A DNA stretch of 64,000 nucleotides from an uncultured Oscillospiraceae bacterium (lineage in GTDB: Bacteria > Bacillota > Clostridia > Oscillospirales > Oscillospiraceae). This document shows, one piece after another, positions 37,003 to 54,880 of this stretch; within the stretch, counting starts at the first letter, position 1, and each line of letters opens with the position of its first letter. Made by a program: the position numbers and the translations under genes. The stretch spans positions 31,948 through 95,947 of the forward strand of contig CABUAK010000001.1 of assembly GCA_902489545.1 (NCBI GenBank), read 5' to 3'. The notes under the pieces were generated by a model, which had not been told where the DNA came from, did not search any database, and worked only from the letters and a program-made list of their open reading frames with translations.

Positions 37003-37060
37003 ACAACAAAAACCCCAGCAGGAACTACGGCAAACAAATGTGCCATAGTCCCTGCTGGGG
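37003..37060 (-). terminator. Terminator for the minus-strand GntR gene (long hairpin)
   Basis: 10-bp stem ccccagcagg/cctgctgggg with an extended imperfect inner stem; an A-run on the + strand gives a U-run on the minus-strand transcript. Confidence 0.5.
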
Positions 37061-37119: not shown

Positions 37120-37854
37120 CTAGGCAGGGGACTTTTCGGGCGTTACCAGTGGCAGATCAACCCGAAACGCGTATTTGTCACCTCGGACGATAGACTTTGT
37201 ATATTCGATCAGCATATCACCCTCATAACTGTATCGTTCCAAGAGAGTGCAAGGAATATCGGATAAGATGTGCAACAGCGTCTTTTCCTCTAGACGAGGC
37301 ATGACCGGTTGGAATTTCTCTACCGCTCTGTCGGCATGAAAACCATATCTATCGCGAAGAAATTCATACAAGGAACCGTTTGAAAGAATGTCAGTATCCA
37401 ACGATAAAAACCGTGCCCGCGGCAGATAGGTCACTTCCAGCATCAAGGGATATTCTCTCGCGGACCGCAGCCGCACGAGCCTGTGGAACCGGGTACCAAT
37501 CGGATAACCGGTCTCATGTTCCAAGGCGGCATCTGCTTCCACCAAGTTACAGCTGATTACTCTATTCTGGATAATAATATCCACGCTTTTAAGCATGTCC
37601 GTAAAGGAATAGAAGCCAGATAAAGGCTGCGTAAAGAGCCGAGGTTTGATATAAGACCCTGTTCCATTAACCGTTTCTATAATTCCAGTCGCTTTCAGTA
37701 AATCGAGAGCCCGTCGAACAGTTGACCTGCTTACATTATATGTTTTGCACAATTTGTCTTCTGAGGGTAAGGGAGAATTTTCCTGGTAGACTCCTCGCTG
37801 TATATCAGCCAGAAGTTTTTTGTAAATAGTGACAAAAAGGGACTCGTTTGCCAT
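37120..37854 (-). CDS. GntR/HutC-family transcriptional regulator with a UTRA effector domain
   Basis: wHTH (SEDKLCKTYNVSRSTVRRALDLL) plus a C-terminal UTRA domain; about 42% GC; RBS GAGGAGG. Confidence 0.85.
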   Translation of the reverse strand: MANESLFVTIYKKLLADIQRGVYQENSPLPSEDKLCKTYNVSRSTVRRALDLLKATGIIETVNGTGSYIKPRLFTQPLSGFYSFTDMLKSVDIIIQNRVISCNLVEADAALEHETGYPIGTRFHRLVRLRSAREYPLMLEVTYLPRARFLSLDTDILSNGSLYEFLRDRYGFHADRAVEKFQPVMPRLEEKTLLHILSDIPCTLLERYSYEGDMLIEYTKSIVRGDKYAFRVDLPLVTPEKSPA

Positions 37855-37918
37855 CCTATTTCCTCCTCAAAAATCTTCCTGCAAAGAAAGCCGCGGTTAT
37901 TTCATGGGACAACGGTGG

Positions 37919-37964
37919 TCGTGAATGCGATTCGCATTCACGTGATAGGGGGTACCCCCTATCA
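37919..37964. promoter_or_regulatory. Two adjacent perfect palindromes (operator candidates) in the divergent GntR/kinase intergenic region
   Basis: cgtgaatgcgaTtcgcattcacg (11-bp arms) then gtgatagggggTAccccctatcac (11-bp arms). Confidence 0.4.
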
Positions 37965-38108
37965 CGAATCTTAGCTGACAGAGAAATCTATACAGATGCT
38001 ACGTGGAGATAACCTCAGTTCTTGGCAGATTGACCAATAACAACCTTGCCCTTTAATATACTGCCGACAAATTTGCCTGTCAAGCCTTTTTGCGACACCG
38101 CCCCAAAA

Positions 38109-38180
38109 GAGATACAGGTTGGCTTAGCTGTATGCTCAAATTTGAGATACCTGTATCTCAATCAGGCCCACCTGTATCTA
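38109..38180. promoter_or_regulatory. Three copies of an ACCTGTATCT motif (one inverted) upstream of the sugar operon
   Basis: agatacaggt at 38110-19; acctgtatct at 38149-58 and 38170-79; about 100-170 bp upstream of the kinase start. Confidence 0.35.
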
Positions 38181-38279
38181 AATGACCAAATCGGTTGACT
38201 TTTTCAGTTGAAATCTGTACGGTATATACAAAGGCATACCCCAAGTACCATAAGAATTCGGTAAAATGGAGGTTCGGCC

Positions 38280-39212
38280 ATGAAAAAGTGGTTCATCGGA
38301 GTAGACGGGGGCGGCACAAAAACGGCGGTCGCCGTCTCGTTGCCGGATGGAAAACCAGTAGCGGAGACAGTCGGGAAAGGGTGCTCCTATCAGATGCTGG
38401 GCGTTGATGGCGCCGTCACGGTCATCATCAAGGAGGTGCGTTCCTGCCTGGAGGCCGCCGGAATCACCTTGGATGACTGCGCCGGGTGCTGCCTTGGAGT
38501 TCCTTGCTATGGCGAGAACGCCGAAAACGATGCCGCGATAACGGAGGCACTGCGGCAGGCACTCTCCCCTGTTCCGGTCCACATCGTCAATGATGTGGAA
38601 GTGGGATGGGCTGGAGCTCTGGCCTGTCAAGCGGGAATCCATATCGTGGCGGGGACCGGGGCCATTGCCTTTGGCAAAGGTCTGGACCAGCGGGCTGCCC
38701 GATGCGGCGGCTGGAATGAGTTCTTTGGCGACGAAGGCTCCTGTTACTGGGTCGGGAGGGAGGCCATGAGTCTCTTTACCAAGCAGGCGGATGGACGCAT
38801 CCCCCGCGGGCCCCTCTATGACGTTGTACGGCGGGAACTGTCATTGTCCAAAGACATGAGGTTCATTGACATTGTAGTAAGCGATTTGGCCCCCTATCGG
38901 GACAAAGTTGCCGCTTTCCAACTCTATGCCAGTCAAGCGGCAAAACTGGGCGATCCGGCAGCGGTGTTGCTGTACGAGAGAGCGGCCCGGGAGCTTGCGC
39001 TGCTGGCGGGTGCTTTACGAAAAGAGTTGGTACTGCCGGAAACAGCCAGTGTTACCTACTCTGGCGGACTGTTTCGGACAGGCAGCCTGATTCTCGATCC
39101 GTTGGCAAGGGAACTGGATGGCTGTGGCTGCGTCTTGCGGAAACCGGAGAAAAGTGCTCTGGAAGGTGCGCTGCTGCTGGCTGTCAAACAATTTCACGGG
39201 AAAGGCAGGTAA
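38280..39212 (+). CDS. BadF/BadG/BcrA/BcrD-type ATPase (N-acetylglucosamine kinase-like sugar kinase)
   Basis: N-terminal ASKHA signature GVDGGGTKT; eukaryotic-type NAGK-like length; RBS GGAGG. Confidence 0.75.
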   Translation: MKKWFIGVDGGGTKTAVAVSLPDGKPVAETVGKGCSYQMLGVDGAVTVIIKEVRSCLEAAGITLDDCAGCCLGVPCYGENAENDAAITEALRQALSPVPVHIVNDVEVGWAGALACQAGIHIVAGTGAIAFGKGLDQRAARCGGWNEFFGDEGSCYWVGREAMSLFTKQADGRIPRGPLYDVVRRELSLSKDMRFIDIVVSDLAPYRDKVAAFQLYASQAAKLGDPAAVLLYERAARELALLAGALRKELVLPETASVTYSGGLFRTGSLILDPLARELDGCGCVLRKPEKSALEGALLLAVKQFHGKGR

Positions 39213-39217
39213 AAACT

Positions 39218-40255
39218 ATGTATTTGACTGAAGCGGAGATCCTGGATACTCCGCTGGCTCTGGCCTCCACCTGCGACTACTTTAAGAAGCGCGACGGAGA
39301 TCTGGCCGAATTTTTCGCAAAACACACGCAGAGGAAATTCGCCGTCCTGGGCTGCGGCTCCAGCTTTATGCTGGCAAAGAGCGCCGCGACACTGCTGGCA
39401 TCGATGCCCGATACCGTTGCCAGTGCGATCCCTGCCGGTGACTATATCCTCAATTATGATTTCTGGCAGGAGACCGTTCGGGGCAGCATCGTCATTCTGC
39501 TTTCCCGCTCCGGCAAGACCTCTGAGATGGTCTGGGCGCTCAAACACATTAAGGAAACCCTGGGCTGCCCGGCTATTTCCATTACTATGAAGGCAGAGAA
39601 CGATCTCACACCGCTGTGCGACCTGAATCTGGTGCTGGATTGGTGCTACGACAACAGTGTCTGCCAGACCCGCACGGTGACGAACCTCTACACTGCATCT
39701 CTGCTGCTGGCAGCCAAATATGCCGGCAAGGACGATTTGCGGAAGAGCGTTCTGGCGGCGGCGGAGAACAGCAACGCCTTCAATCTCAGGTACCGTCCCA
39801 TGCTCCAGGAGATTGCCGCCATGGATTGGGACCATGCGGTGGTCCTGGCCGATGGGCCGGTGAGCGGCATTGCCGAGGAGGGCGCGCTGGCTTTTACGGA
39901 GATTGCTATGCTGCCGGGCTGGTGCTTCCATCTGCTGGACTACCGCCACGGCCCCATCGTGGTCAGCGGCGGCAAAACCCTGACGCTTGTACTCCTGCGT
40001 CCCGGCGAGGGCGAACTGCAGGGTAAGATGGTTCAGGATGTAATGGCCCGGGGGAGCATCGTGGTGACGATCTCCGACCAGGCAGAAAATCTGTATGGCG
40101 CAGCGGCCCACGTTCAGATCACGGGTGTGGATGACTTCGCCGCTTGGGGCATTCTCTTTATCTACGTGGCCCAGATGACCGCGCTGCTCAAGGCGCTGGC
40201 CTTGGGCGGCAACCCGGATCAGCCCAAGGGGCTGGATGCGTACATTTCTCTTTGA
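39218..40255 (+). CDS. Double-SIS-domain sugar-phosphate isomerase/deaminase (AgaS/FrlB/GlmS-C-like)
   Basis: Two SIS domains (GCGSS...SRSGKTSE motif); 345 aa. Confidence 0.75.
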   Translation: MYLTEAEILDTPLALASTCDYFKKRDGDLAEFFAKHTQRKFAVLGCGSSFMLAKSAATLLASMPDTVASAIPAGDYILNYDFWQETVRGSIVILLSRSGKTSEMVWALKHIKETLGCPAISITMKAENDLTPLCDLNLVLDWCYDNSVCQTRTVTNLYTASLLLAAKYAGKDDLRKSVLAAAENSNAFNLRYRPMLQEIAAMDWDHAVVLADGPVSGIAEEGALAFTEIAMLPGWCFHLLDYRHGPIVVSGGKTLTLVLLRPGEGELQGKMVQDVMARGSIVVTISDQAENLYGAAAHVQITGVDDFAAWGILFIYVAQMTALLKALALGGNPDQPKGLDAYISL

Positions 40256-40430
40256 TGGGAAACTGCCCAGCTAACTGCTGGTGCTTTTCCGTAGCGGAGA
40301 AAAATACTGGAAATGTTAAGAGGCAGAAACAGGATTGGCAATATGTGCCAATTTGGGAGTTCTATTCCGCAAGTAACGAGTAAGAACTAAGCAGAAAGAA
40401 CGGAACGAATTAATGGAGGAGGTTCACGAA

Positions 40431-40496
40431 ATGCGTAGACGAAACAGAAGCAGGTTCCTGGCAATGCTTTTAAGCTTTGTGTTCACAGTTCAGTGA
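40431..40496 (+). pseudogene. 21-codon ORF resembling an orphan signal peptide (MRRRNRSRFLAMLLSFVFTVQ), a possible remnant of a deleted solute-binding protein gene
   Basis: Strong SD GGAGGAGG 9 nt upstream; basic N-terminal region plus hydrophobic core, then an immediate stop. Confidence 0.25.
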
Positions 40497-40586
40497 TCTC
40501 CTCACCCTCACCCCTCAGAAGACGGGAACACAAAACCGATGCGAAAAGTGGATATACGGCAAATTTAGAGCAAAGAAGGAGAAGGC

Positions 40587-41957
40587 ATGAATAAAATAAC
40601 ATTTCTGGGCGCAGGAAGTTCCGTATTCGCTAAAAATGTTCTGGGTGATTGTATGATGACGGAGGCTATGAGCGATTGGGAATATGCCCTGTTCGACATC
40701 AATCCTCAGCGCCTTGAAGAATCATACAAAATGCTTTCCAGCATCAATTGCAACTGCAACAGCGGAAAAGCCAAAATTGTCAAGTATGATAATCGGCTGG
40801 AGTCCCTCCGCGATGCAAAATACGTTGTCAATGCGATTCAGGTAGGCGGGTATGATCCTTGTACTATTACCGATTTTGAAATTCCCAAGAAATATGGTTT
40901 GCGTCAGACGATTGGCGACACCAACGGCATTGGCGGCATCTTCCGCGGGCTGCGTACTATCCCTGTTATGAGGGGATTTGCCGAAGATATGGAGAAGGTC
41001 TGCCCGGATGCGCTGTTCATCAATTACACAAACCCCATGTCCATTCTGACATTGGCATGGAACCGGTACTCCAGTATCAAGGCCGTTGGGTTGTGCCATT
41101 CCCATCAGGAGTGTATCCCAAGCCTTTTCGGCAAACTCGGCCTGCCTCAAAACAATCTGAAGTATAAGATTGCGGGCATCAATCATATGGCATGGCTGCT
41201 GGAGGTCACTCGCGAGGGAGAAGATTTGTACCCCATGATTAAGCAGAGAGCGGCTGAAGGACCAATTATTGATTCCTATGCGGAAGCCCGCAAGATATAT
41301 CGTCAGATTCCGCGCATTGAGGGTGAATTTACCGTTGACAACAATGACGATATGGTTCGCTTTGAATTGATGAAGCAGTTCGGTTACTATGTGACAGAAT
41401 CCAGTGAGCACAGTGCCGAGTACTACCCCTATTTCATCAAGAAAGAGCACCCGGAGTTAATCAAAAGGTTCAACATTCCTCTCGACGAGTATCCCCGCCG
41501 CTGCTTAATTCAGATTGAGGAATGGGCAGAACAAGCAGAAAAGCTGATCCACGATGAAAAACTGACCCACACCCACAGTCATGAATATGCCTCCGGAATC
41601 ATTGAGGCTATTGAGACTGGCAAGCCGTTCTCGTTCGGCGGAAATGTGATGAATACCGGTCTAATCGACAACCTTCCCGCAGATTGCTGTGTTGAGGTCA
41701 CGTGCCTTGCCAATGAAGGCGGCATCCAGCCCTGCCATATTGGAGCATTACCCCACCAGTTGGCAGCATTGAATATGCGGCAGATCAGTGTGCATCAGCT
41801 TACAGTGGATGCTGCACTTACTGGAAAAAAGGACTACATCTACCAGGCGGCGATGTTAGATCCCCATGCCTCTGCCGAACTGACCATTGATGAGATCCGC
41901 TCTATGGTAGATGATCTCATTGCCGCTCATGGCGATTGGTTGCCTGCATACCACTGA
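40587..41957 (+). CDS. Glycoside hydrolase family 4 (NAD+/Mn2+-dependent alpha-glycosidase)
   Basis: N-terminal Rossmann motif KITFLGAGSSVF and GH4 conserved regions; about 44% GC; RBS AAGGAGAAGG. Confidence 0.85.
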   Translation: MNKITFLGAGSSVFAKNVLGDCMMTEAMSDWEYALFDINPQRLEESYKMLSSINCNCNSGKAKIVKYDNRLESLRDAKYVVNAIQVGGYDPCTITDFEIPKKYGLRQTIGDTNGIGGIFRGLRTIPVMRGFAEDMEKVCPDALFINYTNPMSILTLAWNRYSSIKAVGLCHSHQECIPSLFGKLGLPQNNLKYKIAGINHMAWLLEVTREGEDLYPMIKQRAAEGPIIDSYAEARKIYRQIPRIEGEFTVDNNDDMVRFELMKQFGYYVTESSEHSAEYYPYFIKKEHPELIKRFNIPLDEYPRRCLIQIEEWAEQAEKLIHDEKLTHTHSHEYASGIIEAIETGKPFSFGGNVMNTGLIDNLPADCCVEVTCLANEGGIQPCHIGALPHQLAALNMRQISVHQLTVDAALTGKKDYIYQAAMLDPHASAELTIDEIRSMVDDLIAAHGDWLPAYH

Positions 41958-41978
41958 GACTGAGAAGGGAGAAATGAC

Positions 41979-43370
41979 ATGTCAAATGATATGAAAAGCA
42001 CTGTAAAGACAGAAGAGCCAAAAATGTGTACCAAGAAAGAGCAGATAGGTCATGCTCTCGGTGTGCTGGGTCATGATTCTGCATATACTATGTGGGGAAC
42101 TTGGATGATGCCATTCATGACGGACATTCTGATGTTGCCCGCAGCGTTTATCGGAGTTCTTGGCACAGCGGGACGCTTTTTTGATGCGTTCACCGATATT
42201 TCCATGGGTGTGATTGCCGACCGCACCAGAAGCAAATGGGGGCGCTTCCGTCCTTGGGTTCTCCGGGCGGGTCCGCTGTTCTGTCTGCTGATGGCACTAA
42301 GCTTTATCAAATTGCCTATTGGCGTTACTGGTCTATGCGTTGTTGCCGGTGTACTGTATATCCTTACAGGGAGCATTGCCTTTACGGCGGTAGACATTCC
42401 TTTTTGGTCTCTGCCTGCTGCGATGACCAGCAATACAGCTGAGCGGTCCAGCATCATCGGCTCGACTACAACGGCATCTAATCTGGTTACTGGCCTGCTG
42501 GGGGTCGTTATGCCAATCATTCTGGCACAGTTCGGTACATACGAGTGGACATCGTATTTCTACATGGCACTGGTCTTTGCTATCTTTGCCTCCGTCATGT
42601 ACTTCCTGTGCTTTAGGATGGTAAAAGAGCATGTTGTGCCAGACGATACGGAGAAATTCAGCCTGGTATTGGCACTGAGGAACATCTTTACAAACCAGCC
42701 ATTGCTCTGTGTCCAAATCTCCAATATTTTCTGTCTGGGCGGCATGGTTCTCCGAGGATACCTACTGTATTACTACTGCCAATATAACTTGGGTAATGTG
42801 GCGCTGATGGCACCATTAAGTGCCATCGGTACGGTTGGTATGGTTGTCGGTGCAATTCTGTTTACCCTCTTAGCAAAATATATTGGCAAAAAGAACTGCA
42901 TGTTTGGTATCGCCATTATCTATGCAGCAACAAACATCGTTCTGTACTTCATTGGCTGGGGTAATTACGCACTATTGTGTGTGTGCGCAGCGATAACGAC
43001 GACCACAAGCGGAGCAGCTATCGTGTGCGTCAACGCAATGATGGCTGATACAATCGAATATGGCGAGTGGAAAACTGGTCAGCGTAATGAAGCAATGATT
43101 ACCTCCACCCGTTGCTTTGTTACAAAGTGTGTTGCTGCCCTGGCCGCTCTGGCGGTAGTCGCTGCAATCGGCATGACTGGAATGAATCCGGAAGCAGCCG
43201 TGCAGGCCCCCGCAGTTCTGAATGGGTTCCACCTTCTGTATACCTTAGTCAATGCCTGTGTCATGATTTTGGCTGTGATTCCGATGTTTTTCTATAAGCT
43301 GACTGAAAAACGTCACGCTGAGATTATGGAAGAACTGGCCGCCCGCAAGGCCAGCAAGGGCAATAACTAA
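41979..43370 (+). CDS. MFS transporter of the glycoside-pentoside-hexuronide (GPH):cation symporter family
   Basis: 12-TM pattern; GPH signature region (GVIADRTRSKWGRFRPW); about 45% GC. Confidence 0.8.
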   Translation: MSNDMKSTVKTEEPKMCTKKEQIGHALGVLGHDSAYTMWGTWMMPFMTDILMLPAAFIGVLGTAGRFFDAFTDISMGVIADRTRSKWGRFRPWVLRAGPLFCLLMALSFIKLPIGVTGLCVVAGVLYILTGSIAFTAVDIPFWSLPAAMTSNTAERSSIIGSTTTASNLVTGLLGVVMPIILAQFGTYEWTSYFYMALVFAIFASVMYFLCFRMVKEHVVPDDTEKFSLVLALRNIFTNQPLLCVQISNIFCLGGMVLRGYLLYYYCQYNLGNVALMAPLSAIGTVGMVVGAILFTLLAKYIGKKNCMFGIAIIYAATNIVLYFIGWGNYALLCVCAAITTTTSGAAIVCVNAMMADTIEYGEWKTGQRNEAMITSTRCFVTKCVAALAALAVVAAIGMTGMNPEAAVQAPAVLNGFHLLYTLVNACVMILAVIPMFFYKLTEKRHAEIMEELAARKASKGNN

Positions 43371-43458
43371 ACCATTCTCTCTCCCCTCACACATAGCGCA
43401 GCCCCCAAGAGGCGCCCGGCGGCAAGCGCCGGGCGTCTCGACTATTTCTGGAAAGGCA

Positions 43459-44784
43459 ATGACAATGAAAACAAACAAAAAAAACCCAATTTTGAGCCTA
43501 CTGCATAACCGCGATGTCAATCGCGAAAAAGGGATTTATTCCTGCTGCAGTGCAAATGAGTATGTCATCCGGGCCGCCCTCCGCCGTGCCAAAGCCAATA
43601 ACACTGTAGTCCTGGTGGAGTCCACCGCCAACCAAGTCAATCAGAACGGCGGTTACACTGGCATGACCCCCGCCGCGTTCCGGCAATTTCTGGATCGCCT
43701 GGCTGCCGAGGAGGATTTCCCCGTCGAAAGCCTGCTCTGCGGCGGCGACCACTTGGGCCCTCTGACCTGGACGGCTCTCCCCGAGGCTCAGGCCATGGCC
43801 AACGCGGAGGAGCTGATCCGCTCCTATGTGCTGGCGGGCTTCTCCAAGATACATATTGATACCAGTATGCGCGTGGCAGACGACGACCCCAACGCCCGCC
43901 TGTCCGACGAGACCATTGCCCGGCGGGGGGCCCAGCTCTGCCGCACGGCGGAGGACGCCTTCGCCCAGTACAGCGAGGCGCACCCGGAGGCCCCCGCCCC
44001 GGTGTACGTCATTGGCAGCGAGGTCCCCATCCCCGGCGGGGCCCAGGAGAACGAAGACAGCGTGGCCGTCACCTCTCCGGCGGACTGCGAGGCCACGCTG
44101 GTGGAGTTCCGCCGCGCCTTCGCCGCTCAGGGGCTGAAGAATGCCTGGGAGCGGGTAGCCGCGCTAGTGGTGCAGCCGGGAGTAGAATTTGCGGACGACA
44201 GCGTCGTCACCTATGACCGCGCCGCTGCCAGGGAACTGATGGCGTGTCTGGACAACCACCCTGGCTTGGTCTTCGAGGGCCATTCCACCGACTACCAGCC
44301 CAAGGAGCGCCTGCGGGAGATGGTAGAGGACGGCGTGGCGATCCTGAAAGTGGGACCCGCCCTGACCTTTGCCCTGCGGGAGGGGCTGTTCGCTCTGGAG
44401 CAGATCGAGCGGGAGCTGTACGGCGTCAGCGACTTCCCCCGCTCCCATTTCCGCGCCGTGCTGGAGCAGGCCATGCTGGAGGACAAGAGCCAGTGGGCGA
44501 AATACTACCACGGTGATCTGCCCCGGAAGCGGTACGCCCGGGCGTTCAGCTACTCCGACAGGGCCCGATACTACCTGGTGAACCCCAAGGTGCGCTCCGC
44601 CACGCAAACGCTCCTTACCAATCTGGACGCCGCGAGTATTCCCATGGCCCTGCTCAGCCAGTACATGCCGGTGCAGTACGCCCGGGTACAATCGGGGAAG
44701 CTGCCGCTGCGGGCTACTGATCTCCTGATTGACCGGGTGGGAGATTGTATTGACGACTATCTGTATGCCACGATATGGCAGTAA
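43459..44784 (+). CDS. D-tagatose-bisphosphate aldolase non-catalytic subunit family (GatZ/KbaZ)
   Basis: Length and conserved GatZ/KbaZ regions (CSANEYVIRAAL...VLVESTANQVNQNGGYTGMTP). Confidence 0.8.
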   Translation: MTMKTNKKNPILSLLHNRDVNREKGIYSCCSANEYVIRAALRRAKANNTVVLVESTANQVNQNGGYTGMTPAAFRQFLDRLAAEEDFPVESLLCGGDHLGPLTWTALPEAQAMANAEELIRSYVLAGFSKIHIDTSMRVADDDPNARLSDETIARRGAQLCRTAEDAFAQYSEAHPEAPAPVYVIGSEVPIPGGAQENEDSVAVTSPADCEATLVEFRRAFAAQGLKNAWERVAALVVQPGVEFADDSVVTYDRAAARELMACLDNHPGLVFEGHSTDYQPKERLREMVEDGVAILKVGPALTFALREGLFALEQIERELYGVSDFPRSHFRAVLEQAMLEDKSQWAKYYHGDLPRKRYARAFSYSDRARYYLVNPKVRSATQTLLTNLDAASIPMALLSQYMPVQYARVQSGKLPLRATDLLIDRVGDCIDDYLYATIWQ

Positions 44785-44800
44785 ACAAAGGGGGATAACC

Positions 44801-45661
44801 ATGCCATTAGTCAACAGCAGAGAACTTTTGAAGGACGCGCAGGCCCACGGCTACGCCGTCGGCGCGTTCAACGTAGAAAATATGGAAATGATGCAGGCAG
44901 TAGTGGCCGCAGCGGAGGCCGAGTCCGCGCCGCTGATGCTGCAGACCACGCCCTCCACCCTTCGCTATGCGGGACCATCAGTCTTTGCCGCCATGGCCCA
45001 GGCCATCGCCGGAAAGGCCCATGTCCCTGTGGCGATCCATCTGGATCATGGGGACAGCTTCAAGCTGTGCCGACAGGCCGCTTGGGACGGATACACATCG
45101 ATAATGATCGACGGTTCCAAGCTGTCCCTGGAGGATAACATCACTTTGGTGCGCCGGGTGGTGCAGATGGCTGGGGATGTGCCCCGGCAGCCCGCCGTGG
45201 AGGCGGAGCTGGGGCGCTTGGGTGGTAAGGAGGACAGCCTGGAGGTAAAGCCCGGTGAGGACATTTATACCGATCCCGGCGAAGCAGCCCGTTTCGTGGA
45301 GGAGACAGGAGTCGATTCCCTGGCGGTAGCCATCGGCACGGCTCATGGGTTTTATAAAGGCAAACCCAAGCTGGACTTTGACAGGCTGGCTCAGTTGCGG
45401 GACGCAGTATCTGTGCCGCTGGTGCTCCACGGATCTTCCGGTGTTCCGGATGAGGATGTGCAGAGGGCGATTTCTCTGGGCGTGTGCAAGGTGAACTTCG
45501 CCACGGAGTTGCGGGCCGCCTATACGGAAGCCACCCGGAAGACTCTTTCCAGTGACCCGGATCTGTATGATCCCAAGAAATTTGGTAGTCCCGGTCGGGA
45601 GGCTGTGACAAAACTGGTGCGCCACCGGATTGCCGTCTGCGGATCGTGTAATCGCGTATAA
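44801..45661 (+). CDS. Class II fructose/tagatose-bisphosphate aldolase (KbaY/GatY/FbaA family)
   Basis: Zn-ligand motifs (HLDHG, HGSSG); ATG at 44801 after AAAGGGGGA. Confidence 0.85.
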   Translation: MPLVNSRELLKDAQAHGYAVGAFNVENMEMMQAVVAAAEAESAPLMLQTTPSTLRYAGPSVFAAMAQAIAGKAHVPVAIHLDHGDSFKLCRQAAWDGYTSIMIDGSKLSLEDNITLVRRVVQMAGDVPRQPAVEAELGRLGGKEDSLEVKPGEDIYTDPGEAARFVEETGVDSLAVAIGTAHGFYKGKPKLDFDRLAQLRDAVSVPLVLHGSSGVPDEDVQRAISLGVCKVNFATELRAAYTEATRKTLSSDPDLYDPKKFGSPGREAVTKLVRHRIAVCGSCNRV

Positions 45662-46125
45662 GCTCTATTGGAGGACTGAATTTGTCTTTATGTCAGATCA
45701 ATTTATGCTCAACTGAAATATATAAGTCTGTTGATGGTCTGATACATATGGCAATTCAGCCCTCCCAGTCTGTAATGATGGGCCAATTCTCAAAGGAGGA
45801 GTAAAAGTGGTTGTTTTAGGGGGTGATAACTAGAGGGGCGGGATAAAGCTCCCTCTTGGACTTTGGAGTTGCAAACCGACCTTGGTTGCACAACTTAACG
45901 GAGGTAGAAAGCATAACAGAGATAACTTAACACGCGTCTTGCGGCGAGGTTTAGAGGCAGCGGAGGACCACTGCCTCCTCTCGGCGACCGCTTTGAACTT
46001 AAAAAGGATGATAAAATGTATGGGATGACGCCGATGGGCGTCTTTTTTACTGCCATTTTTCCACTCAAAATAAATGAACACGCACTTTGTCAACAGCTCC
46101 AAAATGTCCCAAGGCGGAGGCATCC

Positions 46126-46353: not shown

Positions 46354-46491
46354 TCATAGCCTGAATCAGAGAAGCCTCATTGTCATAGCTATGCTGTCCA
46401 TGTTTGTCGTCAGCGCCGCGTTCAACAAGACACAGCTGGTAAAAATATTTCCCGGGCAATTGTACATATCGCCAAGGGCAGCTTTACCAAG

Positions 46492-47514
46492 GTGATGGCG
46501 GGCTACATTCTCTGTGCCGCCCTTCTCTGCTCGCTGATCAGTTCCAAACTGATCCCATTCTGCATTTTGTATCCCCTTTTGGCCGGGACACTGGAGGACA
46601 TGGGTGTCAGTCCCAGCAAGGAAATGTTCCCTCTGGGCCTGACGTGTATTGCCTGCCTGGGGATCCTGCCCATCGGCAGCGGCGCCGCCAGCTTTGCCCA
46701 GTCCAACGCCTATCTGCAGGCCAGCAGCGTGACGGAATACGCCTTTGTAGCCACCAATACCTTTATGGGCCGCTGGCCGGTGCTGGTTGTCTGTGTGCTT
46801 TACGCAATTTTTCTGGCGCCGAAGCTGGCCCCTGATCGGCCCCCTGTGGCTATTAACGCCATGGAGAACGCCGCCGCGGGTCGCGCCGTCAATAAAGAGG
46901 CAATGGACCCCTTCCATGAGAAGTGCGGCTATATTGTCTTCTTTGCCGTAAGCATTGGCCTGCTTCTCTCCTCCACACTGGGTGTTCCCCCCTGGTTTAT
47001 CACCCTTGTGGGTGCGATGCTGGTGGTAATCACCGGCACGATGAAGCCCCGGGAGGCGGTAGCCGCCATGCCCATCGGCATTTGGCTGCTGTTCGTGGGG
47101 GCTATATGTCTGGCCAACGCGCTGAATCTGACGGGAGCCGGTGCCATGATCGGTGATTTTATTGCAAAGGTTTCCATGACACTGAAATACGACGTGCTCA
47201 TTTATGCCGTGTTTTTTATTGTACCCTTTGTTATGACGCAGTTTATATTCAACCAGACAGTATCCACCATCCTGATGCCGATTACCATCCAGGCCTGTAT
47301 GAGTTTGGGGGTCAATCCGGTTGGACCCATGATCTATGTGAGCGGCGCGGCGCTGACAGCGTTTATGTCCCCCATGGCCACCGGTACGGTTCCGTACTAT
47401 ATGGCGGCCGGTGGGTATGATATGCGCAGTGTGCTCAAGCAGTCCTGGCTGCCCGCGCTGCTGTTTGCGGTGGTACAGGTGGCGTGGATGTCTGTTGCCT
47501 TTCCGCTTCATTAA
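46492..47514 (+). CDS. Ion-transporter superfamily permease (SLC13/CitMHS/ArsB-NhaD-like), probably N-terminally truncated or frameshifted
   Basis: 340-aa polytopic membrane ORF with GTG start; a hydrophobic TM-like segment upstream (46343-46495) is in a different frame across an A5/T3/C3/G3 homopolymer region. Confidence 0.5.
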   Translation: MMAGYILCAALLCSLISSKLIPFCILYPLLAGTLEDMGVSPSKEMFPLGLTCIACLGILPIGSGAASFAQSNAYLQASSVTEYAFVATNTFMGRWPVLVVCVLYAIFLAPKLAPDRPPVAINAMENAAAGRAVNKEAMDPFHEKCGYIVFFAVSIGLLLSSTLGVPPWFITLVGAMLVVITGTMKPREAVAAMPIGIWLLFVGAICLANALNLTGAGAMIGDFIAKVSMTLKYDVLIYAVFFIVPFVMTQFIFNQTVSTILMPITIQACMSLGVNPVGPMIYVSGAALTAFMSPMATGTVPYYMAAGGYDMRSVLKQSWLPALLFAVVQVAWMSVAFPLH

Positions 47515-47564
47515 AGGCCGCACCCCGGTATCCGGTGCAGGCGCCGGGATAACCCAAAATCGCA

Positions 47565-47600
47565 ATCAGGCCGGGGACTTTGTCCCCTGGCCTGATTTTT
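47565..47600 (+). terminator. Rho-independent terminator after the transporter gene
   Basis: 14-bp stem atcaggccggggac/gtcccc(t)ggcctgat followed by TTTTT. Confidence 0.6.
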
Positions 47601-50799: not shown

Positions 50800-50832
50800 A
50801 AAATGCCGTGGCCCATGCCACGGCATTTTTTT
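50800..50832 (+). terminator. Hairpin terminator/attenuator between the lipoprotein and MBOAT genes
   Basis: 12-bp stem aaaatgccgtgg/ccacggcatttt followed by a T8 run. Confidence 0.55.
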
Positions 50833-50865
50833 GCCCGTGGAAACTATGAAAAGGGGGGAGACCCA

Positions 50866-52251
50866 TTGGTCTTTTCCAGTCTACCGTTTTTGTTTTTCTA
50901 TCTTCCGGTGGTTCTGCTCGTCTACTGCCTCACACCGCTGCATCTGCGCAATCTTCTTCTGCTGCTGGTCAGTCTGCTCTTTTACGGCTGGGGAGAGCCT
51001 GTCTATATTCTCATTATGTTCCTCTCCATCGCGGTGGATTATACCCACGGCATCCTGGTGGAGCGCTGGCGGGAGAACGACAGAAAGGCCCGCATGGCGG
51101 TGTTCTCCTCCGTGTTCTTTAATCTGGCCATCCTGGTTTTCTTCAAATACTGGGACTTTATTGCTGTCAATGTAAATGCCTTGACGGGGCTTTCCCTGCC
51201 GGTGCTGGGCATTCCTCTGCCCATTGGCATCAGCTTCTACACCTTTCAGACGATGAGTTATACCATCGACGTCTACCGCCGCGACGCGCCGGTGCAGAAA
51301 AACATAGTGACATTCGGCGCCTTTGTTACACTTTTCCCCCAGCTGATTGCCGGCCCCATTATCCAGTACAAATCCGTGGCCCGGCAGCTGACTCACCGGG
51401 AGGAGACGGTGGAGAAGGCGGCGTCTGGTGTGGAGCGGTTTTGCGTGGGGCTGGCAAAGAAGGTGCTGTTGGCCAATGCCATCGGCCGGCTGTGGGATGC
51501 CTCACTGGCCAGCGAGAGTTTGACGGCGGCGGGGGCCTGGCTGGGCCTTGTGGCCTACGCCTTCCAGATCTACTTCGACTTCTCCGGCTATTCCGACATG
51601 GCCATCGGCCTGGGGCGCATGTTTGGTTTTTCCTTTGTAGAGAACTTCAACTACCCCTATATTTCCCGCTCAGTGGTGGAGTTCTGGAAGCGCTGGCATA
51701 TCTCCCTGACCAACTGGTTTCGGGAATATGTGTACTTTCCCCTGGGGGGAAATCGGGTGTCCCGGCTGAAATGGGTCCGCAACATCCTGGTGGTGTGGCT
51801 TTTGACCGGCATCTGGCATGGGGCTGGGTGGAATTTTCTGCTGTGGGGGCTGTACTATGCCCTGTGGATGCTGGCGGAACGGCTCTTTTTGGGCAGGTGG
51901 CTGGAGAAGCTGCCGGATATTTTCCGACATATATACGCCATGGCGGTGGTGCTGGTGGGCTGGGCCCTGTTCGCCGTGGAGGATATGGGGCGTCTGGGCC
52001 GATATCTGGGGGCCTGCTTTGGCGCCGGGCCGCTTATTGACGCCGCCGCGCTGTACCAGCTGCGCACGTATTTGCCCCTGCTGGTGATCCTGGCGCTGGC
52101 CTCGACGCCCCTGGGCCGGTGCCTGTGGAGCCGGCTGGGGGAACGGGCAAGGGGTGTGCTCACCCCGGTTCTGGTGCTGGCGTGCCTAGTGCTCTGTACT
52201 GCCTCCCTGGTGGATGCCAGCTATAACCCATTTCTGTATTTCCGTTTTTAA
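50866..52251 (+). CDS. MBOAT family O-acyltransferase (DltB/AlgI-like)
   Basis: TTG start after GGGGGAG gives a MVFSSLPFLFFYLPVV family-typical N-terminus; conserved His region (WHISLTNWFREYVYFPLGG...GIWHG). Confidence 0.85.
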   Translation: MVFSSLPFLFFYLPVVLLVYCLTPLHLRNLLLLLVSLLFYGWGEPVYILIMFLSIAVDYTHGILVERWRENDRKARMAVFSSVFFNLAILVFFKYWDFIAVNVNALTGLSLPVLGIPLPIGISFYTFQTMSYTIDVYRRDAPVQKNIVTFGAFVTLFPQLIAGPIIQYKSVARQLTHREETVEKAASGVERFCVGLAKKVLLANAIGRLWDASLASESLTAAGAWLGLVAYAFQIYFDFSGYSDMAIGLGRMFGFSFVENFNYPYISRSVVEFWKRWHISLTNWFREYVYFPLGGNRVSRLKWVRNILVVWLLTGIWHGAGWNFLLWGLYYALWMLAERLFLGRWLEKLPDIFRHIYAMAVVLVGWALFAVEDMGRLGRYLGACFGAGPLIDAAALYQLRTYLPLLVILALASTPLGRCLWSRLGERARGVLTPVLVLACLVLCTASLVDASYNPFLYFRF

Positions 52252-52262
52252 GGAGGGCTTGT

Positions 52263-53360
52263 ATGAAACGAACCGCACAATATGTGACAACGGGCCTTTT
52301 CTTCCTCTTTCTGCTTGGCTTTGGCCTGATTCACCTGCTGCTGCCGGACCGCAGCTTTTCCCCGGTGGAGAACCGGAACCTGAGCCAGCTGCCCTCTTTC
52401 TCCTGGGCGGCGCTGGCGGATGGCAGTTATACCGCCGATCTGGAGACCTATCTGGCGGATCAGTTTCCCGGGCGTGACAGCTGGATGGGCCTTCAGGCCC
52501 GCTGGCAGTGGCTTTTGGGCCGCCGGGAGTTTAACGGCGTCTTTCTCTGCGGGGACACCCTGATCTCCCAGGTAACGGACAACAGCCTGGGGGAGCGGAA
52601 CCTGGGGTATATCGCCAGCCTGGCCCAGCGGACAGATATCCCGGTCTGTCTGGGCCTGATTCCCACGGCGGCGGAGATCTGGAGGGAGAAGCTGCCGGAG
52701 GGAGCCTGGTCCTATGACCAGTTGGCCTTTCTGGAGCGTGCCAGGGATCTGGATGTCACCTGGGTAGACATGGCCGCCGCCCTGGGGGCCCATCGGGAGG
52801 AACCGATTTACTACCGCACGGATCACCACTGGACCAGCCTTGGGGCGTACTACGGCTACACCGCACTGATGGAGGCCCTGGGGGAGAGGCCCAAGGCTCT
52901 GGGGGATGGGGAGACCATGTCGGAGAACTTCAACGGCACCCTCTACTCCACCTCCGGTGTCCATTGGCTGGCGCCGGACACGATCCAGCGCTATGTTACC
53001 GGGGAGGGCGTCACCGTGGAGGATGTCTATGCCGGAGCGACCCATGGCCTCTATGTGGACAGCTTCCTGGAGGAGAAGGACCAGTACGCCTTCTTCTTGG
53101 GCGGCAACGGGCCGCTGTATATCGTTCGGAATCCCGGCGCCGCCCTGGACCGGAAGCTGCTGGTGGTACGGGACAGCTACAGCGACAGCCTCGCCCCCTT
53201 TCTCAGCCAGTCCTTCAGCGAGGTCCATCTGCTGGACCTGCGTTACTACCGCACCTCTGTGGCCCGGTACGCCCAAGAGCAGGGAATTGACCAGATTTTC
53301 ATCTGCTACAGCGTGGAAAATTTCCTGCGGGACGCCGACGCCGTATTTCTGGGACAGTGA
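52263..53360 (+). CDS. DHHW family protein (AlgX/AlgJ/DltD-like SGNH-fold partner of MBOAT)
   Basis: N-terminal TM helix; eponymous RTDHHWT motif; RBS TAAGGAGGG. Confidence 0.8.
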   Translation: MKRTAQYVTTGLFFLFLLGFGLIHLLLPDRSFSPVENRNLSQLPSFSWAALADGSYTADLETYLADQFPGRDSWMGLQARWQWLLGRREFNGVFLCGDTLISQVTDNSLGERNLGYIASLAQRTDIPVCLGLIPTAAEIWREKLPEGAWSYDQLAFLERARDLDVTWVDMAAALGAHREEPIYYRTDHHWTSLGAYYGYTALMEALGERPKALGDGETMSENFNGTLYSTSGVHWLAPDTIQRYVTGEGVTVEDVYAGATHGLYVDSFLEEKDQYAFFLGGNGPLYIVRNPGAALDRKLLVVRDSYSDSLAPFLSQSFSEVHLLDLRYYRTSVARYAQEQGIDQIFICYSVENFLRDADAVFLGQ

Positions 53361-54710: not shown

Positions 54711-54880
54711 TGCCTAAATTGGAAAAGAATGGCTTGACAGCGGTGGCTGGAGCCAGTATACTTCATGTATATCTTATATCATGTTACGCTTATAAGAAGC
54801 ATACGGGATGTGACAGGGTATAGGGGCCGAATATGGCCGGCTGGATACCGGCAATTTCACAAAGGAAAGGGAGAAACAAC

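Follow-up and report, generated by a model that had tools for sequence, protein, structure and literature searches.

A putative phosphotransferase-independent operon for the catabolism of alpha-linked galactosamine in gut Clostridia and its relationship to blood-group-A-scavenging loci

FpGalNAcDeAc and FpGalNase of Flavonifractor plautii strip the blood-group A antigen and are under development for universal-donor blood and organs. Our literature search encountered no description of the catabolic genes belonging to the Flavonifractor locus, although the original 2019 paper lay outside that search and a prior description is possible. The chemistry leading from N-acetylgalactosamine (GalNAc) and galactosamine (GalN) to tagatose phosphates is known from Escherichia coli and Shewanella, and GatZ and KbaZ of E. 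coli interconvert fructose-6-phosphate (fructose-6-P) and tagatose-6-phosphate (tagatose-6-P) (PMC11907403). Here, we describe a seven-gene locus located at 37120-45661 of a 64-kb stretch of DNA (the window) from an uncultured Oscillospiraceae bacterium. It probably represents a horizontally acquired, GntR-controlled operon for the catabolism of alpha-linked GalN independently of the phosphotransferase system (PTS), as well as a deletion derivative of a blood-group-A/GalNAc-scavenging locus belonging to Oscillospiraceae-like Clostridia of the gut. Judged from genomic context, its GalN-to-tagatose-6-P core is highly probable. Most likely, the locus constitutes the catabolic back-end of a blood-group-A (GalNAc-alpha) scavenging system of gut Clostridia, the secreted front-end of which would have been lost here.

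The window locus is one of a large family of related loci (compared here under L-numbers, which label individual loci or contigs). Homologues of its double-SIS protein with 59-72% identity are encoded alongside the same regulator and kinase; GntR orthologues (49-73% identity) hold the same position in most related loci, and the kinase and SIS genes co-occur in nearly all of them. In L007/L187, the SIS gene is followed by genes encoding a 772-aa protein that matches the solved FpGalNAcDeAc (6n1a, E 6e-255) and a 1075-aa GH36 protein that matches FpGalNase, described as an 'A type blood alpha-D-galactosamine galactosaminidase' (9awt/8x1b, E 0), after which the locus continues GH36b-GPH-KbaZ-MFS_1-aldolase-...-integrase, the tyrosine integrase lying about 2 kb downstream. 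GntR, kinase, SIS, and GPH proteins of the window and L007 are 57-67% identical, and the backbone GntR-kinase-SIS ... GPH-KbaZ-aldolase is common to the window and the FpGalNAcDeAc/FpGalNase-type loci in the same order. A full arrangement of kinase-SIS-DeAc-GH36-GH4-GPH-KbaZ-KbaY (DeAc being the deacetylase) is present in L019, L082, L101, and L146, preceded by GntR in L019 and in the Ca. Fimivicinus locus L082, and L017 exhibits the variant LacI-SIS-DeAc-GH36-GH4-GH4-GPH-KbaZ-kinase-aldolase. Reduced forms like that of the window occur in L016 (GntR-kinase-SIS-GH4-GH4-GPH-KbaZ-...-aldolase), L133, L160, L172, and L018, a copy ridden with insertion sequences (IS) from which both the deacetylase and GH36 genes are absent. 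In one reduced lineage (L132-L140, L169, and L172; e.g. L136:16850-21037), GntR abuts SIS directly and the only BadF kinase (44% identity) is found about 5 kb past KbaZ, after an ABC sugar transporter consisting of SBP_bac_1 and two permeases. A metagenome scan using the SIS alignment added 80 loci, which yielded 26 SIS lineages (95% identity) when pooled with the earlier ones. The window-type GH4 is encoded in 11 of these, the window's included, with both full and reduced forms recurring. Since human-gut metagenomes display the same gene order in no fewer than 11 SIS lineages, it is not a product of chance.

The deacetylase and the first GH36 of the relatives carry signal peptides, as judged by manual reading of N-termini and by checks for in-frame upstream starts, and neither gene occurs anywhere in the 64-kb window. 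A preliminary description of this DNA had portrayed the pathway as initiated by GH4, which does not apply to its ancestral state. In the fuller loci, the route begins extracellularly with the FpGalNAcDeAc and FpGalNase homologues. Where the missing genes were located may still be recognizable. Intergenic distances within the window locus are 5 nt for kinase-SIS, 21 nt for GH4-GPH, and 16 nt for KbaZ-aldolase, and the spacer between SIS and GH4 measures 331 nt. It contains a strong ribosome-binding site (RBS; GGAGGAGG) followed by a 21-codon open reading frame (ORF) encoding MRRRNRSRFLAMLLSFVFTVQ and a stop codon. The deacetylase genes of the relatives start 47-142 nt past SIS, with products that begin MRRNLKRVASLILSTLVVAQL... 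or MRNRRKAVSLLTGLLVTAQL..., and no DNA-level similarity was detected between the SIS-GH4 spacer of the window and the related loci. Based upon its position, RBS, and peptide pattern, the short ORF is a putative signal-peptide remnant of a GalNAc-deacetylase gene, and a remnant in this location would mark the window locus as a deletion derivative of the full locus. Several features also suggest mobility. The G+C content of about 61% over the window falls to 49-56% at approximately 36.4-47.6 kb, while related loci are accompanied by mobilisation and type IV secretion system coupling genes (L010), IS and recombinases (L018), or an integrase (L187), and the locus would therefore appear to be a mobile island. 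No contig having an identical SipL gene but devoid of the island was found; the island is present on all of them, among the matches listed. Identical copies of the locus exist on human-gut metagenome contigs, and a plasmid search with the whole locus returned no match.

Among the seven proteins, the kinase and the double-SIS enzyme are central to the proposed route. The kinase contains the N-terminal phosphate-1 motif VDGGGTKT (DxGGT type) at residues 8-15, together with the PF01869 domain of the BadF/BcrAD-type N-acetylhexosamine kinases. Its closest solved structure is MurK, a MurNAc/GlcNAc 6-kinase (8zo3, E 3e-28), and it scores 75 bits with the NagK_SO3507 model NF046058, below the cut-off of 370. 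We propose that it serves as a galactosamine 6-kinase. For the SIS protein, the preliminary description had suggested an AgaS/FrlB-like enzyme, an assignment that does not hold. In BLASTP comparisons with E. coli K-12, which are the source of all E. coli identities given here, its identity amounts to 21.5% with AgaS and 23% with FrlB, the latter over a partial length of 286 aa (E 8e-6); with the AgaS model TIGR02815 it reaches 55.9 bits, far under the 529.2 cut-off, and the FrlB model gives no match. FrlA and FrlD were likewise not found in the window. Its nearest solved relatives are archaeal GlmD-type glucosamine-6-phosphate (GlcN-6-P) deaminases (2dec/2cb0, E 3e-23), and the GlmD model NF041128 is its best match despite a score of 89.3 bits that is below the 580 cut-off. 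The protein is therefore no orthologue of AgaS or FrlB and seems to form an unassigned clade of the GlmS-isomerase superfamily; with every curated cut-off missed, it does not cluster firmly with either FrlB or GlmS. In GlmS, an S-x-S-x-x-T loop binds phosphate, Glu488 and His504 are catalytic, and K603 is the Schiff-base lysine. An alignment indicates that the window protein and eight homologues retain the equivalents of S347, S349, T352, E488, and H504, whereas those of K485 and K603 are absent, K603 being absent from AgaS and FrlB as well. We propose that this enzyme is a GalN-6-P deaminase/isomerase yielding tagatose-6-P and NH4+. An AgaA/NagA-like deacetylase is not present among the locus proteins according to the ORF list and the domain and model searches, which fits a route specific for GalN rather than GalNAc.

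How tagatose-6-P would exit the pathway appears to be variable. The KbaZ-like protein is 48% identical to KbaZ and 43% to GatZ, scoring 521 bits with TIGR02810 (cut-off 568.8) and 484 bits with the KbaZ model PRK15458 (cut-off 707); it belongs to the GatZ/KbaZ family and may have an equivalent function. The aldolase is 46.5% identical to KbaY and 44% to GatY, and scores 311 against a cut-off of 215.6 with TIGR00167, 378.1 against 383 with the GatY model NF009374, and 344 against 443.6 with TIGR01858, models that do not separate fructose-bisphosphate from tagatose-bisphosphate specificity. The pair shows equal or marginally greater similarity to the Kba proteins than to the Gat proteins and does not group with those of galactitol loci. 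The aldolase is proposed to act upon tagatose-1,6-bisphosphate. Among the relatives, L009 consists of regulator-kinase-SIS-KbaZ and has no aldolase, while L154-L157 (e.g. L155:13983-16760) contain GH4-GPH-PfkB-aldolase-PfkB and have no KbaZ. KbaZ and PfkB kinases thus seem to be mutually exclusive, which fits a role for KbaZ as a tagatose-6-P epimerase. Judging by this distribution, an epimerase route via KbaZ and a bisphosphate route via PfkB and the aldolase are presumably alternative solutions, and the window, having both KbaZ and the aldolase, could use either exit. That KbaZ functions mainly as an epimerase is a tentative suggestion, to which we assign somewhat less than an even chance.

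The GH4 protein contains GAGS, a GxGS NAD+-binding motif, at residues 8-11 and has no signal peptide. Its residues C170 and H200 correspond by alignment to AglA C174 and H203, which we take from GH4 structures to be Mn2+ ligands. It is predicted to be a cytoplasmic, NAD+/Mn2+-dependent enzyme of the MelA subfamily, with 48% identity to E. coli MelA and about 60% to MelA-like enzymes of Bacillales. In a neighbour-joining tree, the locus-associated GH4s are monophyletic (60 tips, with no outgroup inside). Every GH4 that is at least 71% identical to that of the window (relatives spanning 71-96%) resides within a GalN-type locus, whereas none of the 78 loci encoding outgroup GH4s of 57-62% identity (Paenibacillus, Bacillus, and others) carries any of the other six genes. 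The outgroup was assembled by a genome-contig pattern scan with the generic motif AGINHMAW, in which the Ca. Fimivicinus locus L082 was the single true relative. The GH4 had previously been thought to imply cleavage of an alpha-linked amino-sugar glycoside, and the restriction of its subclade to GalN loci strengthens that idea; it is not what one finds of a plain melibiase having an unrelated neighbourhood. In addition, 11 positions are fixed differently in the subclade and the outgroup, including NPMA>NPMS, CHSV>CHSH, R317A, and D376N, and the subclade exhibits an additional insertion of about 25 residues (the roles of motif positions were assigned by alignment to AglA and LplD plus general knowledge). 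In CHSV/CHSH, the Cys is the Mn2+ ligand as judged by its alignment to AglA C174. All 54 locus GH4s of 70-80% identity have CHSH and 53 of them have NPMS, the other one having NPMP. The canonical NPMA/CHSV, from both of which the window GH4 departs, are displayed by E. coli MelA and by a further 79 MelA-like sequences.

The position of the GH4 gene is equally informative. The gene just upstream of GPH encodes either a window-type GH4 or a GH36 paralogue of FpGalNase with 56-65% identity, and this GPH-adjacent paralogue has neither a signal peptide nor an in-frame upstream start. It retains FpGalNase W317, D346, D347, W387, K461, D463, Y/F464, C513, and D532, the active-site residues of that enzyme, with C513 and D532 being atypical for the family (PMC11762096). 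L010 and L019 provide a direct comparison, as their backbones are 84% identical over 8 kb while their cassettes are GH36b-GPH and GH4-GPH, respectively. Furthermore, GH4 is intact in several lineages without the secreted enzymes (window, L016, L018/L151, L133, L160, and L172). From the equivalence of the slot and the pattern of signal peptides, we infer a conserved design in which two enzymes are secreted and a single cytoplasmic alpha-galactos(amin)idase is coupled to a symporter. We slightly favor the interpretation that GH4 acts on alpha-GalN glycosides as a cytoplasmic alpha-galactosaminidase. Our literature search returned nothing relevant on either a GH4 galactosaminidase or a GalN kinase. 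Separately, the remote variants L170 (7731-12432) and L176, with SIS identities of 49-51%, encode a GH29 alpha-L-fucosidase lacking a signal peptide, followed by the BadF kinase, the SIS protein, and a GH4 of a different type (34% identity), which hints at cytoplasmic breakdown of imported fucosylated oligosaccharides of the blood-group type.

The GPH symporter is 25.5% identical to MelB and scores 198 bits with the MelB model PRK10429, below its cut-off of 456. In MelB, Asp19 accepts hydrogen bonds from the C2- and C3-OH groups and Asp124 from the C4- and C6-OH groups, Trp128 bonds C3- and C4-OH, Lys18 donates to C3-OH, and Arg149 provides two hydrogen bonds to C2-OH (PMC8329300). The window protein and its orthologues keep D19, D124, and W128 (motif DIPFWSL) as well as the cation-site residues D55, D59, and T121, and K377 is also kept in the window protein. 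K18 is replaced by His and R149 by Thr, with Thr or Gln at position 149 among the orthologues. Conversely, the non-galactoside carriers UidB and YicJ of E. coli lack Asp19, Asp124, and Trp128, and have an Arg in the helix-V segment. A galacto-type pocket minus the cationic donors to C2 and C3 is as would be expected for a 2-ammonio-galactoside, which we view as supportive, but not decisive. Wherever this GPH occurs among the related loci, a gene for a cytoplasmic glycoside hydrolase directly precedes it, and we propose that the symporter imports alpha-galactosaminides and possibly GalN. Over SipL...SIS and KbaZ...aldolase, the window shares 99-100% identity with the same-species contigs L184 and L185, yet only 62-80% at 40.5-43.5 kb (GH4 plus GPH), these contigs encoding a GH4 of 461 aa versus 456 aa in the window. 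Both GH4 types are found in tandem in L016 and L017. The GH4-GPH cassette is exchanged as a unit, and the species of the window has two divergent alleles. An extra MFS_1 transporter gene is located between KbaZ and the aldolase in L187/L188 (12848-14092), occurs in L158 as well, is truncated in L160, and is not present in the window; that of the Flavonifractor-type locus could be an importer of free GalN.

The GntR/UTRA protein, 29% identical to FrlR of E. coli, is presumed to be the repressor of the operon. Within the candidate operator cluster of the spacer between its gene and the divergent kinase gene there are three copies of an AGATACA/TGTATCT-type inverted motif: AGATACAG-N10-CTGTAT (38110-38133), GAGATAC-CT-GTATCTC (38144-38159), and CCTGTATCT (38171-38179). 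Promoter-like sites diverge at 38083-38055 (-) and 38030-38059 (+). Of 21 dereplicated GntR-kinase intergenic regions from homologous loci, 11 contain a related motif (AGATACAACTG/CAGTTGTATCT), and it is plausible that these repeats are GntR/HutC operators to which the regulator would bind.

Based upon these features, a pathway can be outlined. In the full loci, the secreted GalNAc deacetylase and GH36 would turn terminal GalNAc-alpha into GalN-alpha, and GalN or GalN-terminated fragments would be released outside the cell. Having neither secreted enzyme, the window strain presumably lives on the products of neighboring bacteria. The GPH symporter would import an alpha-galactosaminide, possibly also free GalN, and the cytoplasmic GH4 would cleave the former by NAD+/Mn2+ redox-elimination to free GalN, which the BadF-type kinase could then phosphorylate to GalN-6-P and the GlmD-like double-SIS enzyme could convert to tagatose-6-P and NH4+. 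From here, KbaZ might act as a 4-epimerase producing fructose-6-P, or a housekeeping phosphofructokinase might phosphorylate tagatose-6-P for cleavage of the product by the KbaY-like aldolase, possibly together with KbaZ. The GntR/UTRA protein would repress at the AGATACA...TGTATCT sites until a phosphosugar of the pathway accumulates. The preliminary description had likewise envisioned a non-PTS route from GalN to tagatose phosphates with a permease and kinase replacing the PTS, and comparative genomics has lent this further strength. Our literature search, which did not include the original FpGalNase paper, returned no description of this pathway.

Several points weigh against this interpretation. 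The substrate assignments of the kinase, SIS, GH4, and GPH proteins all rest upon genomic context, and the loss of the helix-V Arg from the symporter is read from an alignment of 25% identity. No tagatose-6-P kinase is encoded at the locus, which a function of KbaZ as a tagatose-6-P/fructose-6-P 4-epimerase would explain. Since the secreted exo-acting GH36 should already free GalN, there would be no obvious need for a cytoplasmic galactosaminidase. With respect to the GH4 itself, a His at the CHS+1 position is also found in the alpha-glucosidase AglA (CHGH), and in the remote variants L170 and L176 the GH4 accompanying the kinase and SIS is of the canonical NPMA/CHSV type. As its score exceeds the NCBIfam alpha-galactosidase cut-off (618 bits versus 486) and it shares 48% identity with MelA, the enzyme may simply be an alpha-galactosidase. 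The GH4-GPH pair would then be an ordinary melAB-like module for alpha-galactosides, such as melibiose, raffinose, or B-antigen/alpha-Gal fragments, that merely sits beside a GalN kinase/deaminase/KbaZY set, with free GalN taken up through this symporter or a separate transporter, and with released galactose being passed to a Leloir pathway encoded elsewhere. This scenario is the chief competitor of our interpretation, but we consider it unlikely. The resemblance extends to the roughly 60% identity with Bacillales MelA-like GH4s and a glycosidase-then-GPH order that mirrors melA-melB, the CHSV enzymes of the remote variants would suit it, and the additional MFS_1 of the Flavonifractor-type locus could provide the entry for GalN. 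However, it must also accommodate a GH4 subclade that is confined to GalN loci, when 0 of 78 close outgroup loci share any neighbour, and that has fixed changes in two catalytic-site motifs. Its slot is otherwise held by a cytoplasmic paralogue of the GalN-specific GH36 with identical active-site residues, the transporter is devoid of the Arg that binds the C2-OH in MelB, Leloir genes are encoded in none of these loci, and the whole locus has a single GntR regulator and one operon layout.

Two other explanations dispense with GalN altogether. In one of these, GH4 would free galactose, the BadF kinase would convert it to galactose-6-P, and the SIS protein would be a plain aldose-ketose isomerase, resulting in a non-PTS tagatose-6-P pathway for galactose. 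We regard such a pathway as very improbable, although KbaZ and KbaY do handle tagatose phosphates and the GH4 is MelA-like. The kinase-SIS pair adjoins enzymes whose experimentally known product is GalN rather than galactose. The isomerase reaction itself is performed by GlmS-type SIS enzymes, and the SIS protein has the E488 and H504 equivalents without K603. Nevertheless, K603 is missing from AgaS and FrlB too, the nearest characterized relatives of the SIS protein are deaminases (GlmD, NagB-II, and AgaS), and the altered transporter pocket speaks against a sugar bearing a C2-OH. The remaining explanation is a fructosamine/Amadori or glucosamine pathway, with the SIS protein as an FrlB-like deglycase or GlmD-type GlcN-6-P deaminase and the kinase as a NagK or glucosamine kinase. 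A 96% identical homologue of the SIS protein (P0001) has been labeled by JGI as a 'fructoselysine-6-P-deglycase FrlB-like protein'; in both hidden Markov model and PDB comparisons, the SIS protein matches GlcN-6-P deaminases best, the sole NCBIfam match of the kinase is a GlcNAc kinase, and the regulator shares 29% identity with FrlR. These matches are far under the family cut-offs (89 vs 580 and 75 vs 370), and the identity with FrlB is 23% over a partial length. Moreover, an FrlD-type kinase and an amino-acid transporter are missing from most loci, KbaZ plus the aldolase indicate a tagatose (galacto) product instead of fructose-6-P, and the linkage to FpGalNase-type enzymes is conserved. Hence, this explanation also has a very low probability in our estimation. 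For the locus as a GalN route, an extended version of our model would hold that its GH4 is the first alpha-galactosaminidase in that family and forms, along with a symporter lacking Arg149, a swappable import-and-cleave cassette for deacetylated A-type (GalN-alpha-terminated) oligosaccharides; that the kinase and GlmD-like SIS enzyme are non-orthologous replacements of AgaK and AgaS in a route accepting only GalN; and that strains can be cross-feeders and alleles can serve different glycan targets. This extended version is nearly an even proposition, and we advance it with corresponding reserve.

The seven ORFs of the locus were confirmed, and Pfam and NCBIfam domain searches agree with the family labels (Table 1). 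One correction to the genes as initially described concerns the aldolase, whose true start is most likely the ATG at 44801 (286 aa), as called on identical contigs, and not the TTG at 44729. Long antisense ORFs at 39194-40111, 40722-41450, 44164-44814, and 46366-47565 (all on the - strand) were rejected as by-products of high G+C content, and an Rfam scan of the whole window (1-64000) yielded no family at gathering score and no riboswitch or RNA gene. The hairpin in the GPH-KbaZ spacer could divide the cassette from the downstream genes, either by terminating transcription in part or by providing a site for RNA processing.

Table 1. Coordinates of the features identified at the GalN-type locus, numbered from the first position of the window.
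Feature	Coordinates	Strand	Basis or remark
Terminator-like hairpin, 20-bp stem then T-run	37013..37060	-	3' of GntR gene
GntR/HutC regulator, winged helix-turn-helix + UTRA	37120..37854	-	GntR 3e-17, UTRA 1e-28 (Pfam)
Candidate operator cluster	38110..38183	.	Repeats in divergent intergenic region
BcrAD_BadFG (ASKHA) sugar kinase	38280..39212	+	PF01869 9e-29
Double-SIS enzyme	39218..40255	+	End-to-end alignment with two-SIS isomerase domain of GlmS
21-codon ORF + RBS, putative deletion scar	40431..40496	+	Position, RBS, peptide pattern
GH4 (Glyco_hydro_4 + 4C)	40587..41957	+	E 1e-57 and 4e-65; PRK15076 617.9 bits vs 486 cut-off
GPH (MFS_2) cation symporter	41979..43370	+	TIGR00792 324 bits vs cut-off 231
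GC-rich hairpin, 13-bp stem, weak T tail, GPH-KbaZ spacer	43409..43439	+	Hairpin prediction
GatZ/KbaZ-family protein	43459..44784	+	PF08013 3e-175, 583 bits; alternative start 43465 = 439 aa
Class II ketose-bisphosphate aldolase (KbaY/GatY-like)	44801..45661	+	PF01116 1e-101, 340 bits
Terminator-like hairpin then T-run, first such site past aldolase gene	46027..46042	+	Hairpin prediction

On both sides, the locus is flanked by housekeeping genes, with rsmB-rlmN-PP2C-PASTA kinase-rsgA-sipL upstream and pcrA/uvrD downstream, and the host is therefore a spore-forming Clostridium-type Firmicute. At its right edge, the island is in decay and differs among contigs. In the window, a CitMHS-family transporter ORF at 46492-47514 (+) covers profile positions 83-333 of 336 and is thus N-terminally truncated; it is split in two on L002 and L003, while L004 has a resolvase gene, a TPR gene, and a substrate-binding protein gene instead. 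Further downstream are an MBOAT membrane O-acyltransferase gene followed by one for a DHHW/AlgX-like SGNH protein (50803-53360, +), resembling surface-polymer O-acetylation pairs, as well as an ORF for a giant cell-surface subtilase of 2671 aa (54833-62848, +), in which a PA domain interrupts the Peptidase_S8 domain, while Big_2 and Fn3-like repeats are also present and the C-terminus carries three SLH domains.

If correct, our interpretation has several implications. The locus family offers a testable account of the physiology of FpGalNAcDeAc and FpGalNase, the context of which is undescribed in the literature searched. Extracellular deacetylation would feed a GalN-specific, PTS-independent kinase/deaminase/tagatose-6-P route with no need for a cytoplasmic deacetylase, and a catabolic route that takes only GalN would explain why gut Clostridia deacetylate the A antigen prior to its cleavage. 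Strains without the secreted enzymes would be cross-feeders on a public good, with the reduced loci pointing to cross-feeding on GalN derived from the A antigen, and the two GH4-GPH alleles within one species would correspond to different glycan targets. Candidates for new specificities include the GH4 as an alpha-galactosaminidase, the BadF-type protein as a GalN 6-kinase, the GlmD-like enzyme as a GalN-6-P deaminase, and the GPH protein as a GalN-glycoside symporter. In addition, the locus presents a natural setting for asking whether KbaZ serves in vivo as a tagatose-6-P 4-epimerase. ABO and secretor status are known to shape the gut microbiota through the availability of GalNAc (PMC12118421). 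Present marker sets for GalNAc pathways are PTS/AgaS-based and would miss carriers of this type of locus.

When compared with the described systems, the window locus is most similar to the FpGalNAcDeAc/FpGalNase locus of Flavonifractor plautii, with which it shares its backbone and in which the genes missing from the window occupy the position marked by the putative signal-peptide remnant. It differs by the absence of both secreted enzymes and of the MFS_1 gene located between KbaZ and the aldolase, and by having a GH4 in place of the second, signal-peptide-less GH36. With the aga/gam system of E. coli, it would share the chemistry leading from GalN-6-P via tagatose-6-P to KbaZ/KbaY (48% and 46.5% identity). 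However, none of the mannose-family PTS, AgaA, and the DeoR-type AgaR is among its seven genes, the regulator is of the GntR/HutC type, the deaminase is no AgaS orthologue, and there is a glycosidase-symporter cassette. The replacement of the PTS by a permease and a cytoplasmic kinase is reminiscent of Shewanella AgaP/AgaK, as judged from its published description (summarized in PMC12118421), and NF046058, a Shewanella NagK-type model, matches the kinase of the window weakly, at the level of the family (75 bits). Unlike in Shewanella, where the substrate is GalNAc, a GalN-glycoside or GalN itself is presumed to be used here, as there is no deacetylase at the window locus, while its GPH is paired with a glycosidase and its deaminase stems from a different SIS clade.

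The cassette itself parallels melAB of E. coli in its protein families and gene order, in the 48% identity of GH4 with MelA, and in the preserved D19/D124/W128 pocket and D55/D59/T121 cation site of MelB. It is distinguished by its location inside an amino-sugar operon, the NPMS/CHSH motifs of its GH4 as opposed to NPMA/CHSV, the insertion of about 25 residues, and a transporter that is 25.5% identical to MelB and has neither K18 nor R149. Lastly, the GlmD enzymes of archaea and Thermotoga (2dec, 2cb0, and 1j5x) match the SIS protein best in sequence (E 3e-23 to 5e-17) and resemble it in their double-SIS architecture without a glutaminase domain and in the conserved catalytic pair of E and H, whereas the context of the window enzyme indicates GalN-6-P, the C4 epimer, as the probable substrate and its score with NF041128 is 89 bits vs 580. 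E. coli and Shewanella provide precedents for the chemistry, but neither system has orthologues of the glycosidase, transporter, kinase, and deaminase that would perform it in the window.

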